Virus record (IMG/VR): IMGVR_UViG_3300035042_000139
Reading direction: 5' to 3' (one strand)
Length of the DNA: 64,000 nucleotides
DNA from: a virus
Taxonomy: Duplodnaviria > Heunggongvirae > Uroviricota > Caudoviricetes
The number at the start of each line of letters is the position of its first letter. Within the stretch, counting starts at the first letter, position 1. Below are positions 2,235 through 48,732 of this stretch, piece after piece. Below the pieces are notes generated by a model. It was given only the letters and a program-made list of their open reading frames with translations. It was not told the origin of the DNA and made no database searches. The position numbers and the translations under genes are program-made.

Positions 2235-2263
2235 ATTATATCACATATTGGTCCATTTTTCAA
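2235..2263 (-). promoter_or_regulatory. Sigma-A-like promoter for the spike/baseplate genes
   Basis: TTGAAA-17 nt-TATAAT with extended -10 TG on the minus strand. Confidence 0.7.
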
Positions 2264-5200: not shown

Positions 5201-8200
5201 ATAGTTCTTGGTTCATCTAGCTGTCCAAATATGTCAAAATCAGTCTTTTCGTTGGGAGATGCTGGTATTGGTTTGTTTAACTCTATGCCGTCATTTTGAG
5301 CTACAAAGGTTATAGTATCACCAAGCTGAAGCTCTGTTATAGTTCCGTTGAATACAGTTGGAAGCTTATCTGGTGTTGAACCATAGCCCATTCTTAAATG
5401 AAGCCTGGCACCTGTTGCAAGCTGTACGCTTTCAAACTCTGAGTTTCTCTTAGCTTTTTCCCACTCAAATTCAGCAAAAGGTGTTAAAGACCATAAAGTC
5501 TCCATTACTCCTTTTTCCTGATAGTATTTATTTCTGTAACCACCAGAAGCATCTGATAATCTGCCCTTTGAGTTTGACATTGTAATCATACATGTATCTG
5601 ATATGTTCTTCTTATCTCTGACAACATCTATACTCTGTACACCATTGTAGTGGTAGAATAAATCCTGCATTTTCCAGAACATAAACTCTCTACCCTCATC
5701 AATCAGGAGCATGTAATAGGATGGAAAAGCTCTGATTAACCTTCCTTTTCTGTCATACTCAAGCATGTCGTTGAACGAACTTGCAAACCTAACATCTTCT
5801 CTTCTTGACTGCATGTATGTTCCTTCAGATGTTAAAACAAAATTATCTCCGTTAATAGATTCTAGAGATTTTTTAATTAACATCGCAAAGTTAGGTAGCA
5901 TATCAATCATTTCTGTAGGGTTTATATAAATACCCTTAGAGCCTATAATATTTTTAGCTGATTTTTCAAATCCTAAATATGCTTCCTTGACATTATTTGC
6001 AGACTCAGGATAACCTCCTTCGTAATTAGATATATCATTTAGTGAGATGCCTTTAACTAAAAAGTATGAAAGCATCTTGAACATATAGTCAACACTTTCT
6101 CTTTTAGAATAGTTCTCATAAAGATTGCTTACACCTGTGCCTTCGATTCTGTCAAAGTTTATTTGTGGAGATTTTTCTTTTAATATGTCATATATTTTTC
6201 CAGATTCAAGCTCATACTTTAGTATACTGGCCCTGTAATTAGAAGCTATTTTTTTCTTAACATCTTGGTTTAAATTATCTCCATTTAAATTTAAAACACC
6301 ATAATAGCTAGCTTCAGATAGTTCATCTACCAATTCTCCACTGCTGTTTCTGTAAAGGCTTTTCTTTGGAAACTCCAGGTAGTCATCATCTATGTAGTCC
6401 TTATCCCAGTTTCCTACAATAAAACCTGCTGCAATTATTCTTTCTATTTCACTAATATCTTTCTGAACAGTGCTATCAAGCCATTTAATAACATATGACT
6501 CCCAGAAGTCACTAATCTTTATTTTTTTATGTTTAACATTACTTACCATTTTATCTTCAGAGGCAAGGTAGCTTTTAAGCTCTTTGTCTGATACAAAAGA
6601 CATGTTGCTTCTATCCAAACTTCTATTATCCATAAACTCGCTTAACTCATTGTAGCCTACATCTCCTTTTTCGTATGCTATATCTGCAAGTGTTGGCTTG
6701 GAATCTCTTTTGTATTCGCTTTGAATATTAGAGTCAATTAAATTTATATTACCTTTATCATCAACTAAAGCTCTAACAGCATTACCCTCTGTGTCTCTAC
6801 CGATAATTACTGCATCATCTTCATCATATAAAGCCCTGATTACATCTTCTGAAAATACTTTTGGCACATCAAGAGCATAAAAATCAGGGTCTACAAAGCT
6901 GTCATCATTAGCATCAAATAGTTCGTGCCTTAATGGAAGCTCTGAATATCTAGGAAGCTCAAGGTCCGGATAAAGGTTGATGTATTTAAGTCTCTCTTTC
7001 ATATTGAAATAGTCTGTTAAATTATCGTGACCCATTTTTCCGTCGACACCAAGCTCCGAACGGTACTGAAGTGATAGAGAGTCTTTGTCTCCTGGCGCAC
7101 CAATATAGCCGAAAAATGAAATCTCAATTTGGAATAATCCCGGCATAGAAGGTACAGTATTTGTCTCTATATTTTTAATATAAGCACCATCTAATCCAAA
7201 CATATCAACTATATTGTTTTGGACTTTCATTACCGGATTATCTAAAACTTTTTTGTATCTAAGCTCCATAGCACTAGTATGAGATGCAAGAAAGTTAATG
7301 CTCTCTAATGTATGTTCGTTATCTGTGACAAAGCTAGTTGAAATAACTATATCTTTTGAGCCTAAATACTGATGAGTTGGTTTTGTGTGCATATTTAACT
7401 TTACGGTATTTACGCCGTTTGACATCGATACATTTATTTGGTTTAAATGAAGGTCGCTGTAATAATGTTTGTTCCACTCGTAATCATCCATCTGATTGTC
7501 GGTCATAGATACAGCTTCTTCTCTTTCTTTTAAGAGGTCTTTACCACCGGCTATTACTCTGTCTTTGATATATAAAAAGCTGTCTCTTGAGATTTTAATA
7601 TTAAAAGAATTAGCCTCTTTTATCCTCTCGATTTCTTTTTCAGTTGACTTAACTAAATCGAGTTCTGTTGGTATTAAATTATCTTCTTCTTTTTGCTTTA
7701 AGTAGTTGATTAAAAATTCTTTATTTTTCTCGCTTCTTAAAGCTATATCGAAATAGTCACCATCATAGCCTTCAATTTTAACAAGGTCTTCAATTAGATT
7801 ATCGTAGCGGCTAAGTCTTCCATTTTCCAAGAAATCAAGCTCGTTGTGGATATTAGGCTCATAATAGAGCCCATCGTTGAAGCTGTCATTTCTTCTTTCC
7901 TGTTTGTCAGCAATTTTTCTTATGTATTCTAGGTAAAGCTCTTTTTTTGAATCCTCATTATTAAGGTTATAACTTCCCTTTAGCTCATTAAAAAGTTCAT
8001 ACTGTTCCAGAGCTTCTGTAAACACCTCATATTCAAAGACTAGCTTTTCGTATTCTGTACTGCCTTCTTCAAGGTCTATCTGGTATTCTCTTAAGACATC
8101 TTCCAGTGAAGCTTCAAGGTTTTCTCTTTTCTGTAAGGACCAGCTATCTACTGTAAAGAAGGAAAAATCCTCTCCGTCTCTCTGGTAAAAGGGTAGTTTT

Positions 8201-9426
8201 GTACCCCTATGCTTTATTCCGGTACCATCTATAAGTCTCTGGTAGTAAAATCTAAATAAACCCCAGTCGAAGACATCTTTAAAAGGTCCAACCATATTTA
8301 TGTAAGCTTCATGATTAAACTCCAGTGCTATTAATGTAGCCTTAACAAGTCCCGGAAATCCCTCAACATTACTGATTGATAGGTTTTGAAGTGTTAAAGC
8401 TGAGATATCATGAGTTTTGTTTAGGTATTCATTTTCTATAGGTAAAAAAGGTGTCAATTTAAATTGGGCCATTAAAGGCCTCAATCCGTTTATGTAATAT
8501 ACTGGTCTAAATTCCTCTCCATCCTGCATGATAACTGCGCTTTTACCGGCAGCTAATTTAGGAAAGCCGTTAATCTGGTCACCTTCATAGGTTCTTCCCT
8601 TTATAAGTTCTTTTGTTCTTTTGTTGCTGTCGAAATAAAACTCCATCTGTACCTGTTTTTGCCTGTGGCCTGTTGAGGACATTAAAGTGCTTCCACCACG
8701 AATGACTGATGTTGGATTGACTTCATTTATGTCGTTTACCACAATAGCTTCAGGAGGTATCGGAAGAATGCTGTCACCTATTTTGATGTTTGTTTCAGGG
8801 TCAAAAGAACCTACAAACTCATCTAAGTCCTCTTCAATCTTTTCTGTTTCTTCTTCCATCTTCAGCATATCTGCTATAATAGATAGGTTAGACCACTCTT
8901 TTTTCTCGCTGTCACTTAAGTTCATAGCTTCAACATAATAAGGTGTCCCGAGAGAGTTTGTTAAAAGAGAAACGTTGGCATTTACATATTCTTCTCCCAT
9001 TTTAGCAAAGATAATTGCTATCGGCCGTGAAAACCTTCCTGTTATCAAGCTCCCGTTTTCTTTAGTCCTTAAATCAAGTATTACTTCCTTACCCAAAAGT
9101 AAGTCTTTCATAAAAAGAAAGGACTCTTCAGAAAACTCATCTTTTTCTTCATAACCTGTGTACCTATAATCATCATAATCTCTTAAGCCAGACTTATCAT
9201 CTTCCATATCCCAGAAAGATGTGCCCTCGGGAGCCTGAACACCCGAGAGTCTTATTGAATAAGTGCCATCAAATTCTTTTTCAGTACCCTTAAATATAGG
9301 GTCTGAACTGGTAACATATATAGTGTCACCATCCTGAACTCTTACGACTTTTGCTTTAACAGGCTTTGACTGAAGATTTTCTTTCATTATTATATTTTTA
9401 GTTGTTGCGTAATTGTACTTTGCCAT
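2260..9426 (-). CDS. Giant baseplate hub (gp27/gpD-like) protein with N-terminal SNase-like nuclease and C-terminal degenerate peptidase M15-like domain
   Basis: QDGDT/IRLSGVQAPE/FSRPIA nuclease motifs; hub-like segments LRMGYG...VFNGTITELQLGDTITFVAQ and GEIVVTGDPSVKP...FEVSSVVHSL; ATG at 9426 after GGGGTG. Confidence 0.7.
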   Translation of the reverse strand: MAKYNYATTKNIIMKENLQSKPVKAKVVRVQDGDTIYVTSSDPIFKGTEKEFDGTYSIRLSGVQAPEGTSFWDMEDDKSGLRDYDDYRYTGYEEKDEFSEESFLFMKDLLLGKEVILDLRTKENGSLITGRFSRPIAIIFAKMGEEYVNANVSLLTNSLGTPYYVEAMNLSDSEKKEWSNLSIIADMLKMEEETEKIEEDLDEFVGSFDPETNIKIGDSILPIPPEAIVVNDINEVNPTSVIRGGSTLMSSTGHRQKQVQMEFYFDSNKRTKELIKGRTYEGDQINGFPKLAAGKSAVIMQDGEEFRPVYYINGLRPLMAQFKLTPFLPIENEYLNKTHDISALTLQNLSISNVEGFPGLVKATLIALEFNHEAYINMVGPFKDVFDWGLFRFYYQRLIDGTGIKHRGTKLPFYQRDGEDFSFFTVDSWSLQKRENLEASLEDVLREYQIDLEEGSTEYEKLVFEYEVFTEALEQYELFNELKGSYNLNNEDSKKELYLEYIRKIADKQERRNDSFNDGLYYEPNIHNELDFLENGRLSRYDNLIEDLVKIEGYDGDYFDIALRSEKNKEFLINYLKQKEEDNLIPTELDLVKSTEKEIERIKEANSFNIKISRDSFLYIKDRVIAGGKDLLKEREEAVSMTDNQMDDYEWNKHYYSDLHLNQINVSMSNGVNTVKLNMHTKPTHQYLGSKDIVISTSFVTDNEHTLESINFLASHTSAMELRYKKVLDNPVMKVQNNIVDMFGLDGAYIKNIETNTVPSMPGLFQIEISFFGYIGAPGDKDSLSLQYRSELGVDGKMGHDNLTDYFNMKERLKYINLYPDLELPRYSELPLRHELFDANDDSFVDPDFYALDVPKVFSEDVIRALYDEDDAVIIGRDTEGNAVRALVDDKGNINLIDSNIQSEYKRDSKPTLADIAYEKGDVGYNELSEFMDNRSLDRSNMSFVSDKELKSYLASEDKMVSNVKHKKIKISDFWESYVIKWLDSTVQKDISEIERIIAAGFIVGNWDKDYIDDDYLEFPKKSLYRNSSGELVDELSEASYYGVLNLNGDNLNQDVKKKIASNYRASILKYELESGKIYDILKEKSPQINFDRIEGTGVSNLYENYSKRESVDYMFKMLSYFLVKGISLNDISNYEGGYPESANNVKEAYLGFEKSAKNIIGSKGIYINPTEMIDMLPNFAMLIKKSLESINGDNFVLTSEGTYMQSRREDVRFASSFNDMLEYDRKGRLIRAFPSYYMLLIDEGREFMFWKMQDLFYHYNGVQSIDVVRDKKNISDTCMITMSNSKGRLSDASGGYRNKYYQEKGVMETLWSLTPFAEFEWEKAKRNSEFESVQLATGARLHLRMGYGSTPDKLPTVFNGTITELQLGDTITFVAQNDGIELNKPIPASPNEKTDFDIFGQLDEPRTIISKIVGDRGNLWSRFMNNISGNLLYNESAYGIQHFGEPKRPKWWDESQYLTKRHPITDIYINQNSRSSDKMERAVRDEERTYEVTQNINSSLYENKDFSMYLYGKTVWDVLETCALVAPNYIAAVHPFAFRNTIFFGHPNFDLAYDYEAEMDEKGNYIREESKEEEVELSFTGNGTRKTFELRMNIIEGSLEVRDGDKKITDNIDKIDHRLGRVIFSTPPKDDVKNVIFTFKTLVRGKIEPLNVREKLKSYRQNHFYSSYYDIIANNIRATEKNMYTAVKPVLSKDGIYKELDEMFVDTDIFPDRQRLKKIDTSIPTPDFVKKFTNTFQVTPENAEINARRYGAGALKQAVENMYDGEIVVTGDPSVKPYDYGYLADVRDRISGTFEVSSVVHSLNDTTGFVTSINPSPVVSVNEGLQYDKDFWKWTNSKFSSLYANSVVARLSTYTALASLKSVLESLKITSAAGSLLPATNAGMAATKYLDVTTDALKHSNLGYLPFLLGKNVLERIKDLGTKTDKFVIWVSRFLDNANKMSDISKLGGKGLKNVDSLRKMMISGKFSSRAQKISDGLNDFRNGYVRMGEYLKTASRNADDFPGFMNDMRKYSKLRKSGMKVGDILDDVRVFRRLTTYGLSNAKDVAKILSGPMFFLVTEVVEFVIVSHIMKFLKNMRANREVLTIMPLKRDGKEFTAGLEGHKGCIIGDDPSKMDKFWDSSIINFFIGKSEESISKDEMRQYMIDNSERITNSASLYGSKQNSEMTRKVMGVTNIDDVKGIYKDSYNLNFTKEIEEEAKEEAKKREVEDAVHVDKKNKDEGKKKTQELKSIYDIKEDSRIGWSMKASLFVKDNPDILADYKGHKVHPKIITLFESVKRSLGSTNVIALVDGKSFGSYNEDKILYDNGLAIRFEPRTGEMDINDTVKIIKEAAVNGFGTVKVFKDNSVQVDLFPLFDSKKLKSNTYNKAFGSAKNTVNNTIDDCYGS

Positions 9427-9437
9427 AAAAAACACCC

Positions 9438-12400
9438 CTATTCAAGTGCAGCAAGAATTCTATCTTCTATCCAGCTTTGGTTTATTGAACCTCGATTATC
9501 ACTGGCGTTGACATTTATGTTAACCGGTATATTCATTGCAGAACCTACGCTTTGTGATACAACTCCTGCCAATTCGTTTACATCTTTATCTATTGTTGTG
9601 TTTCCATTAATTATGATATCCATACCCTGATTATTTACTATATTCTGGATGCTGTTCATATCCATCATGGGCTGTCTTGAGCCTGCACCAGAAACGGCAT
9701 TCATTGCCGGATTATTCATGTAGTCCATAGGTAGAGGCTGTGTGCTCATTGCAGCTCCAGCACCCATTATAGCTCCACCTATAGCTAATCCTGCGGCCGC
9801 CATAGGACCGAAAGCCTTATGCTGTGCTACTTCTGATGACATAATTGCTGCAGTTTTGGTATTTGCTACCTTTAAAAATTCCGAAGCTGCATTGCCTGTA
9901 TAGTTGATTCCGTTTTCAGCTATATGACCAGCATTTTTTGATAAGTTTTGATTGCCCTTGTAGATATTTCTGCCCGGGCCAGTTGTATAAACACTTGCCA
10001 TTTCTTTTTCTAAACTATCTACCATTGTATCTTTTATCATGGAATAATCTGCAACGTTAACTTCTCTTGCAACTTTCTCACTTAAAAATATCTTGTTTGC
10101 CACATTTTCAAGCGGATTATTTGCATCTTTTCTCATTCTAAAGTGGACATCGTTCATCGCCTGTATCTCTTCTGGTGATAGGTCCATCATGCCTTCAAAG
10201 TTGCTGAACTTACCTTCTCTAACCCATTTTATAATCTGGTCTGTTGATACTGATGAGCCGGACTTTTTAGTCATTGAGTGTTTACCCGATACAGCTTCCT
10301 GAGTGATTAATCCAAGCCCAGAAGCAAAATTAACAAGCTCTTTGTCGGATGTTGCATAACCCTTACCAAGTCTTTTGATTTCATCTGTCAGGTTATTAAT
10401 CATACCTGTATAAGTTGCATTTGTAAGTTTAGCTTTAGAAAGCCTTGTTGCATAATTTTCAAGCTCTGATTTTGTCATTTGCCTTGTATCCCAGACATCA
10501 AGTTTGCCCTTAAAGTCTGAATTTGATTCTATTGTTTCAAATACTGAATCTACATAATTCTTCTTACCTAAAGTTACATCTTTTTCTAGGGCTACCATAT
10601 TCCTTTTAACCCATGGCCCTTTTGAGTTGTATGAAGTGTTTCTCATTTCATCAGCAACTCTGGCTACTTCTTCTTCCATTTTTTTGGCATTTGTTCTGAC
10701 ACCTTGTTTATTATAGGCCATTACAAAAGATACCCTGTCACCATCAGAATCACCAAATTGAGCAGCTGCCATTGTTGATGATATTCTAACAGTATCATAA
10801 TCAAGCTCATCATCTATTCTGTATTCAACAGGTATTGCTGACTCTGTATGGATTACAGGTGAGCGGAACATCATTCCAGGCATTCCTTTACCTTCTTCAA
10901 GTCCTGACATTATATTGTCAAACTGTTTTTTGTCTGTTTTTTCCAAACCTTTAAGCATGTCTTTTGCTCTATCTCGACTGATATAAATAGCATTAGATTT
11001 GTCAAGGCCTTTGTAGCCAGCACCCTTTACCCCTGCATATGCTTTTTTTATTACTTTTTCATCTATATCAAATTTTCTTGCTACCTTTGATATTTTCTCT
11101 TCTGTAGTGCCGCTTGCTCTATTAACCTCATCTGCAATTTCTAGAGCTGGAGACATAATCTGCAGGTTAAGCCTTCCCGAGCCTTTAAACCTTGCCGATA
11201 ATGCCCTGTTATATTTTTGCCCGTGAGAGCTTGTAGACTGATGGAAGATTGCGTTATAGTAATTTTTGATACCTGTTTTCATACTTCTTAAAGCTTTTTC
11301 TTTAGCCTCCCTTGCTGAAAGGTCTCCAGCAAGTTGCGAGGAGTTTTGGACTGCTGTATTATATTCCCTCATCGCATTAAAGATGTCTGATTCTGCCCTA
11401 CCTATTTCTCCTAAAGAGTAAAGGGCTTCTCCATTTTTTTTCTTGGACATCTCAATTGCCGTATCTGAAAGGAATATTTCGTTTAATTTAACCCTTGTTC
11501 TTCCTGTTTTTTCGTTTCCAAACTCTATCTCAAGTTCTTCTGGCAGTGAAATATAAAGGCCGTTTTTCCCTCTTCTTCTGTATTCGGGGTCAAAAACTGT
11601 CTTTGTTAAATCCGATTTAGAGAAAAGGCCTTTTTCCTGCCCCTGAGTTCCACCTTCTCTTAACTCGCTTAACTCTTCTAGAACTTCTGTGTATTCATTT
11701 ATTCTGGAACCATCTGGTACTGCACCTTCACCTCGAGCTGCTCTTGCAAGCAGTTCCATAGCTCTTGATTGGCCTTCAAGTGCTCCATTTAAGCCTCTTG
11801 TTCCAGGTAGTGATGAAATCCTGTTTGCCTGTTTTGCTTCTTCTAAAACTGAGTCTTTTAGCCATCTGGCGTATTCTGTGTAACCCTTGTCCATCATGAC
11901 TCCGATATGTCTTGGACCTACTTTTACGCCTTTTTTGCCGTAGCCTCCGACTGACATGAAGTTTATGTCTTCACTGTTTTGAGCTAAGACTGCCTCTAGG
12001 TTTAAGATATTATCTTTTAATCCTAGGTTGAAGGATTTTATGTTGTTTAAGTTAGTTCTTAAATCTTTGATACTTAAGGCACCTTTGTTTCTAACTACGT
12101 TGGCAACTCTTGGGTCAATATTTTTAAGACCTAGATTTGCCTGGTCTATTCCTCCTTCGGCTACCATCAGGTGCTTGAATCCGGCTTTGTTGTTGTTGAT
12201 TACAAGTCTAAACTTACCGCTACCTGTTTTGCCCTCTTCTTTGATTGTTGTTGCCAGACCAAAGGTTCTATCTACAATATCCTGAACTTCCTGTATAGCT
12301 TCCTGTTTGATTTGTCTATCTATATTTGAATGGTTTATTTTATTTATCGACTCTTTGATTAAGCCCTCTGCTACTTCTCCATAACCCTGATGTCCTGCGT

Positions 12401-15400
12401 GGTTTATATTACCTGCAACATGAACGCCTTCGCCGAATGCTGCCTTCATAATTTCATCAGGCACAATATTTCTGACAGTAACCTTCTCTGAAGCCAAAAA
12501 TAGTTTGGTTACCCCAGCCCTTGTGCTGAAGTTCTCTTCGAACTTGAAGCTTATCTTGCCGTCATTGATGTTGAATCCTGTAATGAAGTGTTCAACCCCA
12601 TCTTTTCTGGATACCCTTTTAAATATCTCGTCAGGACCCATCTGCTCCATGTAACCCATTCTGTAACCTGAGCCGCCATCTTTAAGTGAACGTTTAACTT
12701 TATTAATAAAGCCTTCATCTAAATCAGACAGCTTGTAGTCTTTTGTATATGAGTTTACTGAATGTAGCGAGTCTGCAAAACTTTGAGATACAATAGCCTG
12801 GTTTTCCCAGAAAGAAGGGAAGTTAGCTGGAGATTTACCAAAAACACCTTCCATAGTGTATTTGTCGCTTTTATCAAAGGCATTTTTTAGCTTCTCTATT
12901 CCCTCAAGCTCATCAACATTTGCTATGCTGACATTAACGCCTGGATATTTAGCAAAAGCATTATCAGTATCTCTTAAAAACTGTTCGGACTGTGTGATAA
13001 GTAAGGGGTCCATAGAGAGTCCTGAATAACCCTTAGCTTTATTTATATTGTCCTGTATTGACTCTATAGCCTTTTTAGAAAGTGTTCTTTTATTTCTCAT
13101 CTGTATCATGTTGTCACGACCGGGAGAGTTGTACATCCCGAAGTTAACAAAATTTCTGTTTTCGATTGAGCTTAAAAAGAACTGATTTACTGCGTGTGCA
13201 CCTCTTGTCGATTCTAAGGATGCATCAATTCCTAATTTATTTTTAATCATTTTTTGAACTGAGCCATCAGCAAACATGTTAAACTTTTTAGATGGGTACA
13301 ATGTTTCACCATCAAGCCCTACCTGTTCGCCTTGATTTTCAAAGACACCTCTAAATAGCACATATCCTTTTTTAAGAAAGTCGGCTTCTGCTGTTGAAGA
13401 ATACATCTTCTCTGCGTCTCTTACATACTTGTTTGAGCCCGAGAGATAGCCTAAAGATTTTTGTATCTTACCGTTTGCTATCATTTCTATTCTTCTAAAG
13501 TCGCCTTCCTGAGCTGCCTTAATCATACTGTTGGCCTCTCCGTTAAGCTCATGCATCATGTAGCTGAAAGAGGTTCCTGTTTTTATATCGGCTCCTGCAC
13601 TGAATTTATCCCTATAAAGGAGTGCAAGTGGTGATATTTTTTTCTGGTTTCCGTAATGAATATACTGGTCTGCATTAACCAGAGGTATATCTATTATAGC
13701 AGCATTTTTATTTGCTTTTAATGCATCAAGTGTGAGCACATCATCTGAGCCCTGCTTGAAAATAGCCATTGATACCTGCGGCTTTTCTACCGTACCTGTG
13801 TTGAAGAGCTCAAAGCCTAAGTCGATATCTCCTTTGCTTGAGAACGCTGTCCCAAATTTGCGTATGGTGCTATTTAGCGAGCTTTCCATTGTAGGTATAT
13901 TTGAAACGAATTCTTTTTTAACTCCCAGTGCCATATAGTTTTTCTGCAAAGCTTCATCTAAAGCCCTTACAGTAGTTAAAACACTGTTGTTAGCTCCACC
14001 TGAAAGACCCTTAGCAAAGCCGTGATTGATGGTTATTCCACTAGCATAGTCTAAACCTTTTCTTAAATATGTATCCACATTATCCATCATCTTTTGGGTT
14101 GTGAAAGCATTTCTTGCTCCAAGTCCCTCAACTTCCATCACGCTTTTTTTAAGTCCCGGTATTTTATCTCTATAATCAACCAGTAGGTCTGAAAGTGCAT
14201 TTATCTGGGTGAAGGCATTGTCCTGACTTTTAGCCATAGGTCTTATAATTTCGTCAAGCCTGTACATAAAGCCCTCATAATCTTTGTTGGCCATATTCTT
14301 CTGGTACTGACTTGCATGGTCTTTTACGCTGTCTAAAACTTCAATAAAAAATCCGTCAGCTGTTTTGAAGTTTCTTCCTGCTGTTGACTCTGTATAGTTA
14401 AATAGTCTTCTTAAGTCACGTCTTGCATTTGATTTTCTCGCAAGTGAGATTCTTGTGTTTCTACCATCTGGCCCCAGAAGGTCTATTCCGTAAGCCTTGT
14501 TGCTTTTAAGGTTTATAATATCTTTATTTTTTCCAAAATCTTTTTGCATTTCCTGATAGGCATTTACAACTGCTGCGTGTCTTTTTTGCACCGGCCAGTA
14601 GTTTGGGTTTTCTTTATCTCCACCATGCAGTGCTTCTACTTCCTTAACAAGCTTGTCTAGTATAGGAGCATCACTTGTAAGTCTGCCCCTCATTCTTCTG
14701 TAGTTTTCTTTCCAGTTGCCCCTTATAATTTTAGAGCCGCTTTTATCTGTATATGAGAATATTTCATCAAGTTCGTTATTTAAAAGACTTCTTCCCTGTG
14801 CTTTTTCTAAGTTATAGGCCTTTAATGTTGCCTGTAAGTTTTTGTAGTTTTTAAAGCTGATATTGTTTGTCATCTGTCTGAACTTAGAACGAGCGATATC
14901 GTTTCTGGTATTCATATACATTCTCTGCATATCGGTATTTGAATACTTTGCAGCATTGTCAAATTTGGAATAGATAAACTGTCTTAATTCCTTCTCGTTT
15001 GACTTATTGACATAGACATTTTCCCCTGTCATAGCATTCTGCAGCTTAACTCCGACCGAGTCTTTATTCCTAAAACTTCCTACAAATCTGTATTTTGTGT
15101 GTGAACTTATGTAAAATTTGCTTCCATCTACTACTTCTTTGCCGTCATTGAATGCCGTAACAAAACTCAATGGACCTTTACCTGTATCCATTGCCCCTGC
15201 TGTAGAAAACAGCTCGTCTCCGGGTTTTAGGGAGCTTATATTAAAGTTCTTTGAAAAATCTCCACCACTAGATAAGATGTTTTTATTTATGTGGTCGAGG
15301 CCCTCTTGGCTGAAAAATAAGTTTGAGACTACGTTAAAAGCTTTTCTTGTATCATCAGCTGCTGAGTGAGTATAGTTTCCAAAACCCATAACTTTGGTCA

Positions 15401-16502
15401 GGTTCTCCATTTTTAAATGACCTGAGTTAAGTCTTGTTAACTGCCCTGTATCTACACTGCTTAATTTCTGCAGGTCAAGCGGTGTGGAATAAAAGGCGTT
15501 TGCTAAATCCAGTGTATCTATATACTGTTTTGGTTTAAATCCGTTATCAAAGCCGTTAGCCTGCATGAATTTTGTCAGGCCTATATTATCAAAATTTTCT
15601 ATATTGTGACCCATAAAGAAGGCATTTGAATTTGCATTCTGTTCGGCAAGATAGTAGCTTAAGTTTTGAGCTACACTACTTGCATCTTTACCATATTTTT
15701 GTAAGTTGCCCAAACCCTCTCTTGCTAGGGCCAGCATCTTTTTACCTGAACTTGCAGAGCTTAATCTTTTAAGCTGACCTCCATCAGTAACAAACTGTTT
15801 GTACATATTAGAAGCTTTTCCTAGTTCTGTCATAGAATTTTTCTGTACAAACTCTGCACCGTTTGAGTATTTGATTAAATCTCCGAGAGTCCTTCTTTCG
15901 GAGTCGCTGAGCATTGGAGTTCTGCCGTTTTCGTAAAAAGCCTGTACTTTATCAAATAGCTCGTTGATATTATCAACAGAAGCTCTATTTGGTGCTACAA
16001 TAAATGAACGCTCTAAGGCTCTTTTAGAAAGCTCATCACCGTTCATTGTGGCAGAGTAGAAGGAGATTTCTGTCGGTGTAAAAATATTACCTTCATTCAT
16101 ATCTCCTAAACTCTCTATATCGAAACCAATTATTTTTGAGTTCGTGTTGATAGCCTTCTGCCAGTTCCTAATAGCTCTATGTGGGTTTCTGCCGTAAGTT
16201 ACTGCATTTACATCCTTGAAAATATCAAGTGTTCCTCTTTTAACACCATTTTCTGTCATGGCATTTTTTATTTTACCAAGGTCATTATATATTGCATTTA
16301 TCTCTTCAAAGTTGTGCGAATACTGAACGGCTTTATTGGCAGCTTTATCAAGCTTTGCCTTAGCCTTTCTTTGACTGCTTACTTGAAAGAGAAAGGAAGG
16401 CTGAGGGTCAGAGACCCTATTTGTAACCTTTAAACCGTATTTATTATACATTTCTTCTTTGTAATCCGACGAGACTGCCGGCATGTTATCAAAATCGTAC
16501 AT
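9438..16502 (-). CDS. Single-chain two-barrel RNA polymerase (putative virion RNAP) with N-terminal DEDDh exonuclease
   Basis: beta-like motifs (GVNVSIA, WENQAIVS, K1333/K1340) followed by beta'-like motifs (RFKGSGR, RSPVIH, DSDGD 1918-1922); ExoI/II/III motifs at aa 128-384. Confidence 0.85.
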   Translation of the reverse strand: MYDFDNMPAVSSDYKEEMYNKYGLKVTNRVSDPQPSFLFQVSSQRKAKAKLDKAANKAVQYSHNFEEINAIYNDLGKIKNAMTENGVKRGTLDIFKDVNAVTYGRNPHRAIRNWQKAINTNSKIIGFDIESLGDMNEGNIFTPTEISFYSATMNGDELSKRALERSFIVAPNRASVDNINELFDKVQAFYENGRTPMLSDSERRTLGDLIKYSNGAEFVQKNSMTELGKASNMYKQFVTDGGQLKRLSSASSGKKMLALAREGLGNLQKYGKDASSVAQNLSYYLAEQNANSNAFFMGHNIENFDNIGLTKFMQANGFDNGFKPKQYIDTLDLANAFYSTPLDLQKLSSVDTGQLTRLNSGHLKMENLTKVMGFGNYTHSAADDTRKAFNVVSNLFFSQEGLDHINKNILSSGGDFSKNFNISSLKPGDELFSTAGAMDTGKGPLSFVTAFNDGKEVVDGSKFYISSHTKYRFVGSFRNKDSVGVKLQNAMTGENVYVNKSNEKELRQFIYSKFDNAAKYSNTDMQRMYMNTRNDIARSKFRQMTNNISFKNYKNLQATLKAYNLEKAQGRSLLNNELDEIFSYTDKSGSKIIRGNWKENYRRMRGRLTSDAPILDKLVKEVEALHGGDKENPNYWPVQKRHAAVVNAYQEMQKDFGKNKDIINLKSNKAYGIDLLGPDGRNTRISLARKSNARRDLRRLFNYTESTAGRNFKTADGFFIEVLDSVKDHASQYQKNMANKDYEGFMYRLDEIIRPMAKSQDNAFTQINALSDLLVDYRDKIPGLKKSVMEVEGLGARNAFTTQKMMDNVDTYLRKGLDYASGITINHGFAKGLSGGANNSVLTTVRALDEALQKNYMALGVKKEFVSNIPTMESSLNSTIRKFGTAFSSKGDIDLGFELFNTGTVEKPQVSMAIFKQGSDDVLTLDALKANKNAAIIDIPLVNADQYIHYGNQKKISPLALLYRDKFSAGADIKTGTSFSYMMHELNGEANSMIKAAQEGDFRRIEMIANGKIQKSLGYLSGSNKYVRDAEKMYSSTAEADFLKKGYVLFRGVFENQGEQVGLDGETLYPSKKFNMFADGSVQKMIKNKLGIDASLESTRGAHAVNQFFLSSIENRNFVNFGMYNSPGRDNMIQMRNKRTLSKKAIESIQDNINKAKGYSGLSMDPLLITQSEQFLRDTDNAFAKYPGVNVSIANVDELEGIEKLKNAFDKSDKYTMEGVFGKSPANFPSFWENQAIVSQSFADSLHSVNSYTKDYKLSDLDEGFINKVKRSLKDGGSGYRMGYMEQMGPDEIFKRVSRKDGVEHFITGFNINDGKISFKFEENFSTRAGVTKLFLASEKVTVRNIVPDEIMKAAFGEGVHVAGNINHAGHQGYGEVAEGLIKESINKINHSNIDRQIKQEAIQEVQDIVDRTFGLATTIKEEGKTGSGKFRLVINNNKAGFKHLMVAEGGIDQANLGLKNIDPRVANVVRNKGALSIKDLRTNLNNIKSFNLGLKDNILNLEAVLAQNSEDINFMSVGGYGKKGVKVGPRHIGVMMDKGYTEYARWLKDSVLEEAKQANRISSLPGTRGLNGALEGQSRAMELLARAARGEGAVPDGSRINEYTEVLEELSELREGGTQGQEKGLFSKSDLTKTVFDPEYRRRGKNGLYISLPEELEIEFGNEKTGRTRVKLNEIFLSDTAIEMSKKKNGEALYSLGEIGRAESDIFNAMREYNTAVQNSSQLAGDLSAREAKEKALRSMKTGIKNYYNAIFHQSTSSHGQKYNRALSARFKGSGRLNLQIMSPALEIADEVNRASGTTEEKISKVARKFDIDEKVIKKAYAGVKGAGYKGLDKSNAIYISRDRAKDMLKGLEKTDKKQFDNIMSGLEEGKGMPGMMFRSPVIHTESAIPVEYRIDDELDYDTVRISSTMAAAQFGDSDGDRVSFVMAYNKQGVRTNAKKMEEEVARVADEMRNTSYNSKGPWVKRNMVALEKDVTLGKKNYVDSVFETIESNSDFKGKLDVWDTRQMTKSELENYATRLSKAKLTNATYTGMINNLTDEIKRLGKGYATSDKELVNFASGLGLITQEAVSGKHSMTKKSGSSVSTDQIIKWVREGKFSNFEGMMDLSPEEIQAMNDVHFRMRKDANNPLENVANKIFLSEKVAREVNVADYSMIKDTMVDSLEKEMASVYTTGPGRNIYKGNQNLSKNAGHIAENGINYTGNAASEFLKVANTKTAAIMSSEVAQHKAFGPMAAAGLAIGGAIMGAGAAMSTQPLPMDYMNNPAMNAVSGAGSRQPMMDMNSIQNIVNNQGMDIIINGNTTIDKDVNELAGVVSQSVGSAMNIPVNINVNASDNRGSINQSWIEDRILAALE

Positions 16503-16505
16503 TTA

Positions 16506-19500
16506 CTAGCCCCCCAGTGCTCTCTGTATTTCAAGCTGTATTTTTCCTGTTACATCCTGTACCATATCGAAATTTATATTTATACTGTTATCTTCTCTTG
16601 GAGTTATTTTAATATCCACATCTCTGATATCATAATCTGTTAATACTTCTTCTAATCTTGTTCTGATAAATCCGGATGACTTTCTGTCGAAACGCCTACC
16701 ATACTCAACTGGAGCTGGTGTTAGCTCTTCCTCTACAGTGTAATCCTTCCAGAGTCCGAAATCTTTAGGGTCATAACCATTATTTTCAATGAGTTTTATC
16801 ATTGAATCTTCAAGGTCTGCCCCTTCCCTCCAGCCAAACCAATTTTCATCTGGCAGTGCATACTCTCCGAACATATCTATTAGAGATTCTTTTTCTGTTT
16901 CCATACCCCATAGAATTTTGTAAGCTCTCTTCTGGTTGTCAGGAACAATTTTTAGTATTTCTTCTCTTTCCTTTTCGTCTGTAACCTTAGAGAAATGCTG
17001 TAAATATTCCCTATCCTTACTTGGAAAAGCAGAAAACATCTGCTGGAAAGTTGAACTTCCATCAAGTCCAAATAGTGTAGAGCGGTATTCCTGTCTGTAT
17101 TTAACCGCCATTCTTGCATAAGGGCCTAAGCCAACAAGTACTTCTTCTGCTTTTGTATCCCTTAATTCTTGAAGTATTTCTTTTCTTTTTGATTCTATAA
17201 ACTCTTTTTCTGTGACTAAATTGTATTCGACCCTACCCTCTGAGTTTATTCGTTTTTGGACAGTGTCTTCTTTACTGATGCCGTATCTTAGTAAGTGTTT
17301 TGAAAAGCCTTCAAGCATTTCTTCTTTCTTTTTTAGCCTTTCGTCAATCTCTTCCATTTCACTTATTATCTTTTCAACATCAACATTTTCTTCTTTTTTA
17401 GCTACGTCTACATATTTATTATATAGCCTCTTATTTTTAACAAACTTTAAGAGGTCGTAGTATTCCCATATCTTTCTTTCTTCTTCTCTTCTTTCCGGTA
17501 TCCACGCCTTACCCGTCTCCAACTCGTACTGTGAGCGAGCAATAGAACCGACACCTGCAGCTACCGCACCGAAGCCACTCATTGCCTTTCTAACTCCGGG
17601 ACCTCCAAGCAGAAGTCCTGTTATAGCTCCTGCTGTAGCACCAGATAATGTAGCCCAGAAAGGATTTCTGGCCCAGGCACTCTGGAATGACGGTACTAAA
17701 AGGTCGTCAACTGGCTCGTTCCATGACTGCCATTCTTTGCCGTAAACTTGATAGTCTTTGTAGTGTTCCATAGGTGAGCGTACATTGAAGAATTTATTAT
17801 GGACTATAGGGATTGGGGCGTGTGCTACTCCTTCCCATATCCTTCCTAAAGCCCTTCCTCCTACGCCTAAGTTTACATAAGTATCAATAGCCCCATCTTC
17901 TTCTTTGGCCTGAACTCCGCTGTCTAAAAGCCTTCTATTTACATTTGAGTCCTGACTGTAGACAACGGCTGGAGTTGAGGCGTTGGGGTTGCTGTCTTTT
18001 GATGCTAGAAGTGTTATTTCGCTTCCAGGCATCATTGTCTGTTCTAATATGTTTAGGGTGTTTTTGCCCTCTTCGGTCTCTGCATTGAAGTTGGTGTTAA
18101 CACCTGCAAGGCGGTATATTCTGTCTGAACCTTTAACTGTGAAGCGGCTGGAGTCTAAAAACTTCTCTACAATAGCTGATTCTCTCTCTATATCCTGACC
18201 CAAAAACTTATATGGTGTCATATGATATTTTTTGTTTGCCTCTTCTTTTTGTTCCTTAGCCTGAGCTAAGAACTCTTTGGCCTCCTGTGAGAGATTCTGT
18301 TCTGAAGCTATTTTAGACCAAAGCTTATATTCCTGTGAATATGGTGCTATATCAGCTAAGATGGCTGCTCTATCAACTGCTCCATACCTTCCATACTCAT
18401 CTGGGTGGAGCTTATTCATTGACTCGTAAGCTTCTCCTGGGAGCCTTATTTCGCCGCGGTTTACTTCTGTATAAGGGTCTCCAGTGCGGAACCTATCAGG
18501 CATCCAGCCGGGCATTGTATTTGGTATGTCGTTTATTACCTTATATAATCCAGGTCTTTTGTTGATAAATCTTCTGAAAATCTCTGAAAGCTCTCCACCA
18601 CGGCCACCAAGCCCTGTATCCCAGAACCTTGATGATGCAGCGTAAGCATCAGATGCTGTCGCTAAAACAGCCTGACCTTCACCGTAATCGTCTCCTCCAG
18701 TTACCATAGAAGCTAAGAATCCTCTTGCACCTGTGATATCCTTGAAGATGTCTAATGTTCTTTCCATACTGTAGCCGATATCAGTTGGGCTTTGCACATC
18801 TAAAGCAAGTTCGCCCTCTTCTCTCGGCTCGTAATATGACATTGTAAATCCTGTATTTAAAATGTTCTTTTTGTTTATCCTGCTTATCTTACCTGATTTA
18901 TCTATAATTGATTGGTTTATATTCTTTAAATCTTTTAGTGAGTAGTTCTGGCCGTTTACTACAAGACCACTGCTTTCAGGGTTTTCAGTAAGCCTAATAG
19001 CAGCTCCTGAACCTCCCGGACCACCACCTTGAACACCAACTGCATTTGAATTTGCCTTATTGCCTGCAACACCATTTACCATGACATTACCCGAACCTAT
19101 TCTTCCTCCACCTGTGGCAACGCCAACATTTGTTGACATTGTATATTTAGGTATATAGGTTGAAAGCTGCAAATCTCCACCTGAAAATCTGGCTATTACA
19201 TCTTTGGCATAAGCATTATTTTTCTCTATTCTTTCTAAGTCTTCATCTGTTGCACCTGCAGACAGTTTAATTTGTGGTTTTAATATCCTGCCTATTGTTG
19301 GATTTAAGAGTGTGCCCCACGGTGTATTAGGGTCAAACATTTCTCCTGTTAGAGGGTATGGTCTGTCTTTTAAGTGCATCTTTTCAAACCAGTACCTGTC
19401 CGTCACGAAGCGTTTAACTGGTGCAAGAGGTTCTGTTGGAGTAGGCATCCAGCTGTGAGCCCAGTAATTTTCTCTTGAGCCGTAAACCGTATCTGTATAT

Positions 19501-22331
19501 TCCCACTGACTCATAGCCTGTCTATAGCTATTTGGTTCGTAGTGGTCTATACTTTCACCCATCCATGGAGTTGAACCTAATATCCAGTACCTACCCTTTC
19601 TGACCGGGTCCTCTCCTGTATTGAAGTAATCTACCCACTCTTTTTCAGTTCTGCCGCTGAATGTTCCGACAGAATTTAGGGCTTCCATACCTATTGTTAA
19701 AGGAGCTAAAGGTCCCATGAAAGGAAGCTTATTAACACTTGCCTTTATACCTTCATTTCCCGGAGTTACCCTATCAAAAAATTTGAAAGCACTTGTAAGG
19801 CCTGTTGCATCTTTAAACTTTGATAGTCTTAAGGTTGCATTTGCCTTTGTTCTTTCTTTGTGCTGTTCTAGTGTGTATCCACTACCTGATATTTCAGACC
19901 AGTAATCGCTTGTATATTTTAAAGCTGTAACACCAGCGTAAATCGGCATAACTCTTTTAGCCATAATGTTGCCAAATGTTGATAAAGGTGAGCCCATACT
20001 GTCATCTGACATAGCAAGAGGCATAAAATCAAAATGCCTTACCATATCATTTAGTCTGTGCATCATACCGTAAGTTAAAAGAGTTCCCTTATTAACTTTG
20101 GACATGTCATTTCGTCCGCCGGTTATAACTGACTTCCAGTCGTTTAAAATCTTAGGGTTGAACTTCTTTACCGGAAGTACATCTCCGTGGAAGTTTTCTT
20201 GGAATTCCTTAACCCTTCCGAAGCCAAAAGCAGGGTGTGTTTCTTTTAGTGAATCTTCAATAGCAAGCCTTACATAAGGGTCTTTCTTGCCTGCTAGAAT
20301 CTTAGTGATTTCAGCTCCATCAAATGATGAGCCGTCCATAGAACCGCTTATTTTAAAGCTTGCAACTGATTTATTTATTTCAACAAATTGGGCCCCTGAT
20401 ATCTCCTTATTTTTATACATTGATTCTGCAATCTCTAGGGTTCTGTCACTACCCCTTAGATTAGTTACCTTCTCTGAGATATCTCTTAAGAGCCTGTCTT
20501 TACCTTCGTTCAGTTTGTTTCCGGCAAATATTCTTTTATTTTTTCTCTGAGTTGATGTATTAAGAATATTATAAGCCCTTGCCCTAAGAGATGTATCATC
20601 TGGCATCTTAGCGCCTTGTTTACCTAGATGCTCTTTTGTAACTTTAATATATGATTCAACAAGGTCATCTTCTGTATCAAATTTTAATCCCTTTAGTTTT
20701 GAGCTGATTTCTGTACCATCTAAATCACGAAGGACCTTTTCTAACATCTCATGACCAAAGCCTGATGATTGATGTCTCATATACTGTTCTAGGTCTTTCA
20801 TCATTCTGTAATCTATTTCCGGTAGAACAGATAATGCTGTGCCGGACTGTATTTTTTGAGCCATATCTTCTGTTACTGTAAAGAGCCTGTTCATTTCATT
20901 TTTGAAATATAGTGGGTCTTTAGATTTTGTAAAAATAGATTTAAACTTTGTTAAAAGCCCCGGCTGTCTCTTGCCCCCTACATCTAAAAGCCAATTGTAT
21001 GCCCTTTCATTACTCCAGTCAGGAGCGTTAACTCCAGACATACTTGACACTAATCTCTTAGTAGAGCCGTACCTTCCTGAAGCTAGGTGGAAGCCTTCAG
21101 CCAGAGGTTTTGACATATCATTTAGTCTGTATATGTTATCTCCAACAGAAATTAATGACTCTTTTAAAACTCCGTCTTTTCCTAAAACTCCATAGCCTTC
21201 AAGTGTTGGTACATTGTAGCCTGAACGAATCAGTGTTCCAGCTCTCTTAGAGAAATCATTCATGGCCATTAAGTCTCTCTGGTAAGTTAAGTGACCTAAA
21301 ATACCACCAGAAAATCCTGAGCGAATATTTCTGCCAAGCTTTTTGAAGTTTCTGGAATCAACAACCTTACCTTTGTACATGTATAGGCTGTCATCTACTA
21401 CAAACTTTTTAAAGTCAGCACCGTGGTTTATCTTTAAAGTGTTTAAAAACTTTCTGCTCTCATCATCTAAAAAGTCGTCACCATAATTTAAAAGGTCATC
21501 CACCGTTGCGTTTTTGTATCCAAAAATATTATTAAACTTTTTCTTTATAAATGAACTCTGGGACTGCTGGTTTTCTACAATCTCATCCATCATTTTCTTT
21601 AAGGCATCTGCCTGAATATTATCTACATTCTTTGGTCTGGCCTCTGAAGCCCCTGATATACTGTCAAATATCATTTTTTGTGCACTATCTCTAATTTCTT
21701 TATTAGCTTCATTAAATGAGTCTAATTTTGCAAGTGCATAGTTAACTTCTTTTTTATCGCCAGAACTTAGCTTTGAAAGTCTGTACTGGTTTTTTTTCTG
21801 AAAATCAGAGGCTATTTTGGCTAAGTCGCCTTCATTATCTTCGATAAATTTATTTAAATTCTTATTTGCCTGAGTGCTGATAGCATCTCTTTTTAATGCC
21901 TTTTTAATTCCGTCAATAACATTTGTTTTCTGTTTTCTTAAAATATCTATATGTAAGTCGTCTGTTCTTTTTGCAATACTTTTATATGTACTTCTAAAAT
22001 GGTCTACTGCACCCTTTGGATTATTAAATACATCAACAGCGTTTATAGCTGTATCAACACCCTTTAAAACTCCGTGCCCGGAACCTGACACATATCTATC
22101 CATTGTGCTTTTGAAGGCTCCAAAGGCAGCATTTGTGGGCTTTGCTACACTCTCTAAAGCTCCTATTATACCTTTGGGGTGAAGTGTGTGGGCTGCAAAT
22201 GCACCTGCTGTAATTGCGGCTGCACCTGTTAGAAATTTATTTGTTTTAGACCAGGCCATTTTAGACTGTCTTTTTTCTTCTCTTTGCTGGAGGCCTTTTT
22301 TATACCTCTCTATGTATCTGTTTGCAGCCAT
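16506..22331 (-). CDS. Giant tail protein in the tape-measure position, with Gly-rich hydrophobic segments and a degenerate SNase-like domain
   Basis: 1941 aa immediately after two tail chaperones; FWATLSGATAGAITGLLLGG...FGAVAAGVG segment. Confidence 0.55.
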   Translation of the reverse strand: MAANRYIERYKKGLQQREEKRQSKMAWSKTNKFLTGAAAITAGAFAAHTLHPKGIIGALESVAKPTNAAFGAFKSTMDRYVSGSGHGVLKGVDTAINAVDVFNNPKGAVDHFRSTYKSIAKRTDDLHIDILRKQKTNVIDGIKKALKRDAISTQANKNLNKFIEDNEGDLAKIASDFQKKNQYRLSKLSSGDKKEVNYALAKLDSFNEANKEIRDSAQKMIFDSISGASEARPKNVDNIQADALKKMMDEIVENQQSQSSFIKKKFNNIFGYKNATVDDLLNYGDDFLDDESRKFLNTLKINHGADFKKFVVDDSLYMYKGKVVDSRNFKKLGRNIRSGFSGGILGHLTYQRDLMAMNDFSKRAGTLIRSGYNVPTLEGYGVLGKDGVLKESLISVGDNIYRLNDMSKPLAEGFHLASGRYGSTKRLVSSMSGVNAPDWSNERAYNWLLDVGGKRQPGLLTKFKSIFTKSKDPLYFKNEMNRLFTVTEDMAQKIQSGTALSVLPEIDYRMMKDLEQYMRHQSSGFGHEMLEKVLRDLDGTEISSKLKGLKFDTEDDLVESYIKVTKEHLGKQGAKMPDDTSLRARAYNILNTSTQRKNKRIFAGNKLNEGKDRLLRDISEKVTNLRGSDRTLEIAESMYKNKEISGAQFVEINKSVASFKISGSMDGSSFDGAEITKILAGKKDPYVRLAIEDSLKETHPAFGFGRVKEFQENFHGDVLPVKKFNPKILNDWKSVITGGRNDMSKVNKGTLLTYGMMHRLNDMVRHFDFMPLAMSDDSMGSPLSTFGNIMAKRVMPIYAGVTALKYTSDYWSEISGSGYTLEQHKERTKANATLRLSKFKDATGLTSAFKFFDRVTPGNEGIKASVNKLPFMGPLAPLTIGMEALNSVGTFSGRTEKEWVDYFNTGEDPVRKGRYWILGSTPWMGESIDHYEPNSYRQAMSQWEYTDTVYGSRENYWAHSWMPTPTEPLAPVKRFVTDRYWFEKMHLKDRPYPLTGEMFDPNTPWGTLLNPTIGRILKPQIKLSAGATDEDLERIEKNNAYAKDVIARFSGGDLQLSTYIPKYTMSTNVGVATGGGRIGSGNVMVNGVAGNKANSNAVGVQGGGPGGSGAAIRLTENPESSGLVVNGQNYSLKDLKNINQSIIDKSGKISRINKKNILNTGFTMSYYEPREEGELALDVQSPTDIGYSMERTLDIFKDITGARGFLASMVTGGDDYGEGQAVLATASDAYAASSRFWDTGLGGRGGELSEIFRRFINKRPGLYKVINDIPNTMPGWMPDRFRTGDPYTEVNRGEIRLPGEAYESMNKLHPDEYGRYGAVDRAAILADIAPYSQEYKLWSKIASEQNLSQEAKEFLAQAKEQKEEANKKYHMTPYKFLGQDIERESAIVEKFLDSSRFTVKGSDRIYRLAGVNTNFNAETEEGKNTLNILEQTMMPGSEITLLASKDSNPNASTPAVVYSQDSNVNRRLLDSGVQAKEEDGAIDTYVNLGVGGRALGRIWEGVAHAPIPIVHNKFFNVRSPMEHYKDYQVYGKEWQSWNEPVDDLLVPSFQSAWARNPFWATLSGATAGAITGLLLGGPGVRKAMSGFGAVAAGVGSIARSQYELETGKAWIPERREEERKIWEYYDLLKFVKNKRLYNKYVDVAKKEENVDVEKIISEMEEIDERLKKKEEMLEGFSKHLLRYGISKEDTVQKRINSEGRVEYNLVTEKEFIESKRKEILQELRDTKAEEVLVGLGPYARMAVKYRQEYRSTLFGLDGSSTFQQMFSAFPSKDREYLQHFSKVTDEKEREEILKIVPDNQKRAYKILWGMETEKESLIDMFGEYALPDENWFGWREGADLEDSMIKLIENNGYDPKDFGLWKDYTVEEELTPAPVEYGRRFDRKSSGFIRTRLEEVLTDYDIRDVDIKITPREDNSININFDMVQDVTGKIQLEIQRALGG

Positions 22332-22342
22332 CTATTTCACCT

Positions 22343-22975: not shown

Positions 22976-22989
22976 ATTAAATCCCCTCT

Positions 22990-23361: not shown

Positions 23362-23393
23362 TAATATAACCCCCTTAAGGTTATGTAATATTT

Positions 23394-24134: not shown

Positions 24135-24139
24135 TATTA

Positions 24140-48364: not shown

Positions 48365-48368
48365 GTAT

Positions 48369-48443: not shown

Positions 48444-48448
48444 ATAAT

Positions 48449-48524: not shown

Positions 48525-48532
48525 GTATTTAT

Positions 48533-48611: not shown

Positions 48612-48613
48612 AT

Positions 48614-48703: not shown

Positions 48704-48732
48704 TTTTTATTCCTCCTTATAGTCTTATAAAC

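Follow-up and report, generated by a model that had tools for sequence, protein, structure and literature searches.

A predicted exonuclease-RNA polymerase fusion in the tail module of jumbo myoviruses related to Bacillus phages 0305phi8-36 and WH1

The protein P0001 (2354 residues) is encoded on the minus strand, at positions 9438-16502, of a 64,000-nucleotide stretch of Caudoviricetes DNA (IMG/VR record IMGVR_UViG_3300035042_000139), referred to here in its whole length as the window. P0001 is very probably a tail-module giant of a myovirus of approximately 200 kb belonging to the Bacillus 0305phi8-36/WH1 group. Its single chain joins a DEDDh exonuclease with intact catalytic motifs, a region of approximately 770 residues, a single-chain two-barrel RNA polymerase (RNAP) and a tape-measure-like C-terminus, and this fusion is fixed family-wide. 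The DEDDh fold, the two-barrel RNAP and the location of an RNAP inside a tape-measure-like protein are each known already. Three points are new: jumbo myoviruses encode a distinct family of tail-module RNAPs that had no annotation, an exonuclease is invariably fused to these enzymes, and phage 0305phi8-36 contrasts with this pattern. The features of P0001 are as follows, those marked as codon translation having been read directly from the DNA.

9438-16502, minus strand: whole P0001 gene (predicted exonuclease, middle region, two-barrel RNAP and tape-measure-like C-terminus)
16152-16502, minus strand: N-terminal leader, residues 1-117, with MPAVSS, NAVTYGRNP and NWQ kept in close homologues
15288-16151, minus strand: predicted DEDDh (DnaQ/epsilon-like) 3'-5' exonuclease domain, residues ~118-405 (model, profile and motifs)
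16113-16121, minus strand: ExoI, the DIE of FDIES, with D128 and E130 (codon translation)
15588-15611, minus strand: ExoII, GHNIENFD, with D305 (codon 15588-15590; codon translation)
15516-15524, minus strand: DTL motif, YID(TLD), with D329 (codon 15516-15518; codon translation)
15351-15368, minus strand: ExoIII, HSAADD, with H379 and D384 (codon translation)
12963-15287, minus strand: middle region, residues ~406-1180, conserved in the family
11841-12962, minus strand: beta-like half of the predicted RNAP core, residues ~1181-1554 (model and conserved residues)
10329-11747, minus strand: beta'-like half of the predicted RNAP core, residues ~1586-2058 (R1771..SG, R1880-x-P1882, DSDGD)
10737-10751, minus strand: Mg-binding DSDGD, residues 1918-1922 (codon translation)
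9441-9962, minus strand: C-terminal module, residues 2181-2354, comprising a hydrophobic segment and a conserved tail, homologous to the C-terminus of 0305phi8-36 gp146

Predicted exonuclease and polymerase domains of P0001

The initial annotation of this DNA had read a complete set of DnaQ-family motifs at 15320-16140 (residues ~122-394), and all of them are found at the claimed residues by direct codon translation. This span forms the catalytic core within the domain of residues ~118-405. The ExoIII motif has the form H-x4-D with histidine rather than tyrosine, placing the domain in the DEDDh subclass. A family-specific insert of approximately 100-170 residues, composed of helices and a hairpin, separates ExoI from ExoII.

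Library models barely see this domain, which counts against the assignment. P0001 alone scores below the threshold of the Pfam RNase_T model (PF00929; 14.7 versus 24 bits), and residues 90-430 alone gave only sub-threshold matches to RNase_T (E = 0.046) and to the PHROG 'DNA polymerase exonuclease subunit' (E = 1e-3). Pfam and PHROGs searches with the full-length protein returned nothing useful, including no RNAP family in the Pfam scan, and no match was obtained in PDB sequence searches with P0001, with residues 90-430 or with a four-sequence full-length profile. The domain was therefore tested by structure and by a family profile. An AlphaFold2 model of residues 92-425 (predicted local distance difference test (pLDDT) of 82) matched DEDDh exonucleases only in Foldseek, with a probability of 1.0 for ExoI, RNase T, TREX2, PolC, KapD and NEN. 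In VIA-align, the closest structures were the PolC exonuclease domain (Z-score of 14.8), the DinG exonuclease (14.1) and ExoI (14.0), and DNA polymerase III epsilon was matched with a Z-score of 13.6 and a root mean square deviation of 2.7 Å over 168/176 residues. A profile of the domain built from 55 full-length relatives (described below) retrieved the PolC exonuclease (E = 9.5e-9) and ExoI (E = 1.5e-8) from PDB sequences; ExoI, ExoII, the DTL motif and ExoIII aligned residue for residue, with FDIES paired with LDFETTG and HSAADD with HRALDD of PolC. The comparison of profiles with hhalign to the PF00929 member P0066 gave a probability of 96.9%.

The match to DEDDh exonucleases is far beyond chance. 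The RNase H-like DEDD fold is present in the predicted structure, and fold, profile similarity, catalytic residues and conservation all agree with the exonuclease claimed by the initial annotation; 3'-5' exonuclease activity is predicted on this basis. The domain shares its RNase H-like fold with DnaQ/epsilon, PolC, ExoI and DinG (Z-scores of 13.6-14.8), together with the ExoI DxE, the ExoII NxxxFD, the aspartate of the DTL motif and the ExoIII Hx4D. It differs from them in the insert between ExoI and ExoII and in being joined to an RNA polymerase, not to a DNA polymerase or a helicase.

At the far end of the protein, the FRSPVIH...AAAQFGDSDGDRVSF region resembles the RxPxxH...NADFDGD region of beta' subunits. 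An AlphaFold2 model of residues 1173-2058, built on the 55 sequences, reached a pLDDT of 87 and a predicted template modelling score of 0.83. In Foldseek, the non-virion RNAP of phage AR9 (beta' N-terminal subunit) and bacterial beta' subunits were the best PDB matches (E = 4e-8 to 1e-6, probability of 1.0). In an independent search against structure representatives, the top match was QDE-1, which aligned across both halves (Z-score of 11.6). Vaccinia Rpo147 matched the C-terminal half (model residues 414-886, Z-score of 10.0) and the RPB2-like subunit of African swine fever virus the N-terminal half (model residues 9-382, Z-score of 9.6); further matches comprised AR9 and phiKZ subunits, P74 gp62 (Z-score of 9.1) and P23-45 gp96 (Z-score of 8.0).

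Residues R1880, P1882, D1918, D1920 and D1922 are invariant in 55/55 relatives. K1333 is lysine in 52 and arginine in 2 of the 55, position 1340 is lysine or arginine in all, and 54 of the 55 have an acidic residue (E/D) at the position of E1233 and retain T1342. The active-site roles of E1233, K1333 and K1340 were assigned by motif order and model. On the strength of the model and these residues, both barrels and the canonical active-site set are present, and residues ~1181-2058 are predicted to be a two-barrel RNA polymerase. The DSDGD is not a chance motif, a possibility ruled out by the fold and by conservation in 55/55. The two-barrel RNAP that had been proposed downstream of the exonuclease is therefore backed by model, structure matches and conservation. 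QDE-1 and the cellular and AR9-type beta' subunits resemble the core at least as closely as do P74 gp62 and P23-45 gp96. YonO of SPbeta, gp99 of 0305phi8-36 and QDE-1 are, like the core of P0001, single-chain two-barrel enzymes with FRSP.IH...DxDGD, but they are not tail-borne and comprise 800-1400 residues.

The remaining parts of P0001 are less readily assigned. The leader (residues 1-117) has no Pfam match and no assigned fold. The middle region of approximately 770 residues is the largest unexplained part of the protein; no domain was found in it by Pfam, PHROGs, PDB sequence search or, for residues 430-1175, the ESM Atlas. The sole hydrophobic segment of P0001, rich in glycine and alanine, lies in the C-terminal module at residues ~2230-2254.

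Conservation of the fusion

An exonuclease-domain profile run against 1.84 billion protein representatives, clustered at 50% identity, gave 66 matches, 55 of which are full-length proteins of 2100-2600 residues. In these 55, the exonuclease lies near the N-terminus, mostly starting at residues ~60-145 (at 258 in one), and every one carries RxP...DxDxD at approximately 80% of the protein length. The five catalytic residues D128, E130, D305, H379 and D384, together with D329 of the DTL motif, are invariant in 55/55, and N300 is retained in 54. The polymerase cores of most relatives are only 15-25% identical to that of P0001, and such invariance across this divergence indicates that both active sites have been selected together over a long time.

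Three members belong to named Bacillus phages: vB_BceM_WH1 gp095, labelled 'virion structural protein'; a protein of Edson that is 94% identical to WH1 gp095 and labelled 'hypothetical protein'; and vB_BauM_KLEB27-3 gp034, labelled 'structural protein'. The translations of WH1 gp095 and KLEB27-3 gp034 contain RYPTIN...ADHDGD and ADYDGD. Database labels of the relatives read 'structural', 'minor tail' or 'hypothetical' protein and none is functional; the best viral structural match in BFVD is likewise named 'minor tail protein'. In the word-seeded protein searches, the same four close relatives came back each time, a pattern scan of IMG/VR found the phage itself only, and a megablast search of the giant-gene region against phage records gave no match.

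The architecture is shared by at least 55 sequence clusters rather than being a one-off, and no published description of it was found. This agrees with the earlier suspicion that no characterised two-barrel phage RNAP bears such a fusion. An exonuclease joined to a two-barrel RNAP is not described in the literature searched, which included Iyer et al. 2021 on jumbo phages, Ruprich-Robert and Thuriaux 2010, the papers on the P23-45 and crAss RNAPs and the polyvalent-protein survey, although absence is not proven, most subscription journals lying outside the search.

Tail-module context and comparison with 0305phi8-36

Over most of its length, the window shares 97-99% identity with part of G001, an IMG/VR record of 203.6 kb. 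Identity drops to approximately 91-92% or is lost in short stretches at 48360-51200, near the strand switch, and at 63250-63890, near the window end. The genes around P0001 form a myovirus structural module comprising a major head protein, a sheath protein, tube paralogues, two chaperone-like genes and three giants, of which P0001 is the second after the chaperones, not the first. The P0001 gene lies in a tight operon, with gaps of 3 nucleotides to the upstream giant, P0002, and 2 nucleotides to the downstream hub gene, P0071. No Pfam or PHROGs domain was recognised in P0002. The initial annotation had also considered a plasmid-prophage; this is unsupported and can be ruled out, the element having a myovirus tail module and a genome of approximately 200 kb.

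22990-23361 and 22343-22975: chaperone-like genes, before P0002
16506-22331, minus strand: P0002, upstream neighbour (1941 residues), orthologue of 0305phi8-36 gp145 (E = 4e-89) and WH1 gp096 (E = 1e-149)
2260-9435, minus strand: P0071, downstream neighbour (2391 residues), orthologue of gp147, the baseplate hub of 0305phi8-36 (E = 9e-40)
16623-24236 of 0305phi8-36 locus L023: gp146, with an ExoI-like segment at residues 1209-1288
18026-21682 of 0305phi8-36 locus L027: gp99, a separate YonO/RdRP-like RNAP (1218 residues)

The gene order of sheath, tube paralogues, two chaperones, a giant of approximately 2000 residues, a P0001-like protein, a lysin-bearing hub giant and baseplate is found in the window and in three divergent metagenomic loci, and the same order occurs in WH1 and KLEB27-3. 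The layout of 0305phi8-36 is alike, with the chaperonins gp143 and gp144 followed by gp145, gp146 and gp147. The last ~170 residues of P0001 match the C-terminus of gp146 (E = 1e-5), with weak but consistent matches across the family. In GenBank, gp146 (ABS83704.1) is annotated as a 'hypothetical tape measure protein', and notes to the record state that gp145 and gp146 were detected in virions by mass spectrometry. Gene order, the gp145 and gp147 orthologues and the gp146-like C-terminus together place P0001 where a protein of the tail lumen or of ejection would be expected; we infer by this analogy that it is carried in the virion.

Two virion RNAPs provide the nearest parallels. In gp96 of Thermus phage P23-45, a two-barrel RNAP is fused to the tape measure (PMC10770324; PDB 8H2M/8H2N). 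Like P0001, gp96 is a giant of the tail lumen that contains an RNAP and has a hydrophobic C-terminal part, and it is presumed to be ejected and to transcribe during DNA entry (Z-score of 8.0 to the P0001 core). However, its RNAP lies at the N-terminus of a 5002-residue true tape measure of a siphovirus, with no exonuclease mentioned (PMC10770324), and no sequence similarity between gp96 and P0001 was detected. The crAss phage phi14:2 gp66 is, like P0001, a single-chain two-barrel RNAP of more than 2000 residues encoded among structural genes beside other giants. It is virion-delivered (bioRxiv 10.1101/2020.03.07.982082), no DEDDh domain has been reported for it, and the virion type differs from that of the P0001 phage. 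No sequence similarity between gp66 and P0001 was found and gp66 is absent from the top structural matches, although the two may nonetheless be related.

Phage 0305phi8-36 offers a natural comparison. Its gp99 matches the Pfam RNA-dependent RNA polymerase (RdRP) model PF05183 (E = 1e-20) and carries FRSPLIH...GADTDGD; an exonuclease domain was looked for in gp99 and none was found. The gene lies just inside the right terminal repeat, in a same-strand gene run that continues out of the repeat, and we take it to be an early gene. PF05183 had no match in G001, including its close copy of P0001, nor in WH1 or KLEB27-3, and no paralogue of the P0001 polymerase core was found in G001. The distribution is therefore complementary: 0305phi8-36 has the PF05183 RNAP, whereas G001, WH1 and KLEB27-3 have the tail-borne exonuclease-RNAP and no PF05183 match. 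Across these four genomes, the polymerase is either a separate gene by the terminal repeat or part of the tail giant.

The positional counterpart of P0001 in this phage, gp146, likewise lies between gp145 (the orthologue of P0002) and the hub and has a homologous C-terminus, but contains no DxDxD and no polymerase signal. It nonetheless has an ExoI-like segment in mid-protein: the exonuclease profile matches residues 1209-1288 (MTYLDIETTG...PLEV), with E = 3e-4 when the whole record was searched in six frames and E = 1.8e-5 against the protein. Beyond ExoI, GQNVADAD, VLDTL and HLARAD can be recognised by eye in the right order. Against a complete domain, the profile match is significant over ExoI only, the hhalign probability is 29%, and Pfam, hhalign, hmmalign and PDB phmmer applied to this region support the ExoI segment alone. 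On balance, gp146 somewhat more probably than not holds a complete exonuclease, perhaps as a cryptic mid-protein DEDDh domain. If so, the exonuclease would accompany the tail-delivered giant both with and without a fused polymerase. The comparison with 0305phi8-36 associates the exonuclease with the tail giant and not with transcription itself.

The presence of an exonuclease-like segment without a polymerase in gp146 would also fit an independent effector, a nuclease that would be joined to the polymerase only for delivery and would be directed against nucleic acids of the host or of defence systems. Its targets could be DNA or RNA of the host, RNAs of retrons or CRISPR systems, or nucleotide signals. 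Cap18 and Cas2-DEDDh, from defence systems, are among the structural and sequence neighbours of the domain, and phage proteins that enter with the genome often combine enzymes of unrelated kinds for use in the first minutes after injection (PMC5512222). Residues 1-230 of the hub P0071 (8746-9435, minus strand) give a weak, sub-threshold match to the Pfam SNase model (E = 0.016, 16 versus 21 bits); were this signal true, adjacent tail giants would carry two nucleases, and the hub may thus hold a second, SNase-like one. Polyvalent proteins, however, vary their domain sets, whereas here architecture and order are fixed in 55/55, and processive host shutoff would be atypical of a DnaQ-type domain. 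No sign of an anti-defence function (PADLOC included) came up, although no search aimed at it was made. We consider an effector role unlikely.

Candidate roles of the exonuclease

The reading that we favour, tentatively and at somewhat below even odds, is that the exonuclease processes the 3' end of the entering genome and thereby exposes single-stranded template for the polymerase. If P0001 behaves like the virion RNAP that is fused to the tape measure in P23-45, it would travel in the tail lumen and be ejected before the DNA, its C-terminus remaining fixed at the hub or membrane end. Tape-measure C-termini generally anchor at the hub, and an anchor of this kind would leave the N-terminal exonuclease nearest the DNA end. 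There, as the linear genome enters, the exonuclease would encounter its leading end and remove the 3'-ended strand, the presumed substrate, leaving the 5'-ended strand single-stranded as template. The fused polymerase, if coupled to this step, would then make the first transcripts, or primers, on the exposed strand; in terms of geometry, loss of the 3'-ended strand would leave template for genes reading towards that end. The overhang may in addition shield the end from host end-dependent nucleases.

Support for a single-stranded template comes from related single-chain RNAPs that work without a sigma factor and use such templates. The crAss phi14:2 gp66 is efficient on single-stranded and denatured DNA, shows no activity on double-stranded M13 DNA and is weak on the native phage genome, and QDE-1 prefers single-stranded DNA (bioRxiv 10.1101/2020.03.07.982082). 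A role tied to entry more than to transcription in general is further favoured by the comparison with 0305phi8-36 and by G001, which has its own DNA polymerase III alpha and in which no paralogue of the P0001 polymerase was found.

Several observations weigh against this DNA-entry role. RNA-acting DEDDh enzymes (RNase T, 3'hExo and ERI) score only approximately 2 Z units below the DNA-acting ones in VIA-align, a gap too small for the fold to indicate whether the substrate is DNA or RNA. DnaQ-type domains usually nibble single-stranded DNA or frayed ends and are not processive duplex resectors. The 'direct terminal repeat' of G001 is a 59-bp circular assembly overlap and not a pair of physical ends; in the WH1 and KLEB27-3 records, which may begin at arbitrary points, no terminal repeats are annotated in the first 14 kb. 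Finally, strong promoters of the host type are present, as listed below. Approximately ten similar sites lie in intergenic regions of G001, and their occurrence in both strand blocks suggests that the host RNAP transcribes many operons and probably much of the phage.

2235-2263, 61033-61061 and 61100-61128, minus strand: a strong sigmaA-like promoter, present three times, with an extended -10 element (TTGAAAARTG-N10-TGNTATAMT); none is expected by chance
165558-166337 of G001, plus strand, outside the window: DNA polymerase III alpha-type replicase (1016 residues; PF07733, E = 2e-91)

Since host-type promoters are plentiful, a role of the fused polymerase in transcription is not compulsory, and the pair could instead serve genome-end maturation: complementary strands of a terminal repeat would be exposed for annealing, or the ends trimmed for a replication primer, with gene transcription not the main output. 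The geometry would suit this, as 3'-5' resection at both ends of a terminally redundant genome would bare complementary strands, and 0305phi8-36 has terminal repeats of 6.5 kb. Yet the genome encodes its own DNA polymerase III alpha, 0305phi8-36 annotates a primase, and no precedent was found for a two-barrel RNAP acting as a phage replication primase. End maturation is accordingly the explanation to which we give little credence. No matches to the Pfam models PolA, PolB, sigma70_r2 and Rpb1 were found in G001.

A different possibility is that the exonuclease edits the 3' end of the transcript by proofreading, by rescue of backtracked or arrested complexes or by 3' trimming, in place of Gre/TFIIS-assisted cleavage, which may be missing in so minimal a polymerase. 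DEDD exonucleases fused to polymerases almost always proofread (Pol I, PolB, PolC and epsilon), and the nearest structural neighbours of the P0001 domain include the proofreading domains of PolC and epsilon. An obligatory fusion in which both active sites are absolute in 55/55 also fits a coupled pair. Two systems can be compared by functional analogy only. Coronavirus nsp14 ExoN is a dedicated 3'-5' exonuclease of an RNA polymerase, but it serves a palm-type RdRp that is unrelated to the two-barrel enzymes. The other is archaeal PolD, the exonuclease of which is Mre11-like. In PolD, a two-barrel polymerase (DP2) likewise works with a dedicated exonuclease (DP1), which is a separate subunit (PMC4996933), and the structural match to the P0001 core is weak (Z-score of 5.9).

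Other evidence speaks against transcript editing. The exonuclease is missing from gp99, and none is mentioned in the papers describing crAss gp66 or P23-45 gp96; the exonuclease-like segment seems to have been kept in gp146, which has no polymerase. Within P0001 the two modules lie approximately 770 residues apart, and high fidelity seems needless for a few early transcripts. Two-barrel RNAPs, moreover, cleave RNA at their own active site. We know of no DNA-dependent RNAP that uses a separate exonuclease, and YonO, to our knowledge, has no exonuclease domain. Editing of transcripts is therefore improbable in our estimation, and the evidence from context tilts towards a role in DNA entry over generic transcript proofreading.

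Taken more broadly, it is about an even bet that exonuclease and polymerase form one coupled machine of an undescribed kind, either the first DNA-dependent two-barrel RNAP with a DEDDh nuclease for proofreading or backtrack rescue, or a promoter-independent enzyme that resects and transcribes. Fidelity control or template opening would in that case have been handed to a fused exonuclease. Virion-delivered two-barrel RNAPs such as gp66 and gp96 are a recent discovery and must open or find their template without sigma-like factors. Every full-length member found here has intact DnaQ-type exonuclease motifs, which points to a nucleolytic step as part of the working of the enzyme. Because the cultured phages WH1, Edson and KLEB27-3 encode the fusion, this can be tested directly by biochemistry and phage genetics. 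Jumbo phages of Bacillota-type hosts encode the family in their tail modules, where 'structural' and 'minor tail' proteins of more than 2000 residues can now be re-labelled as predicted enzymes.

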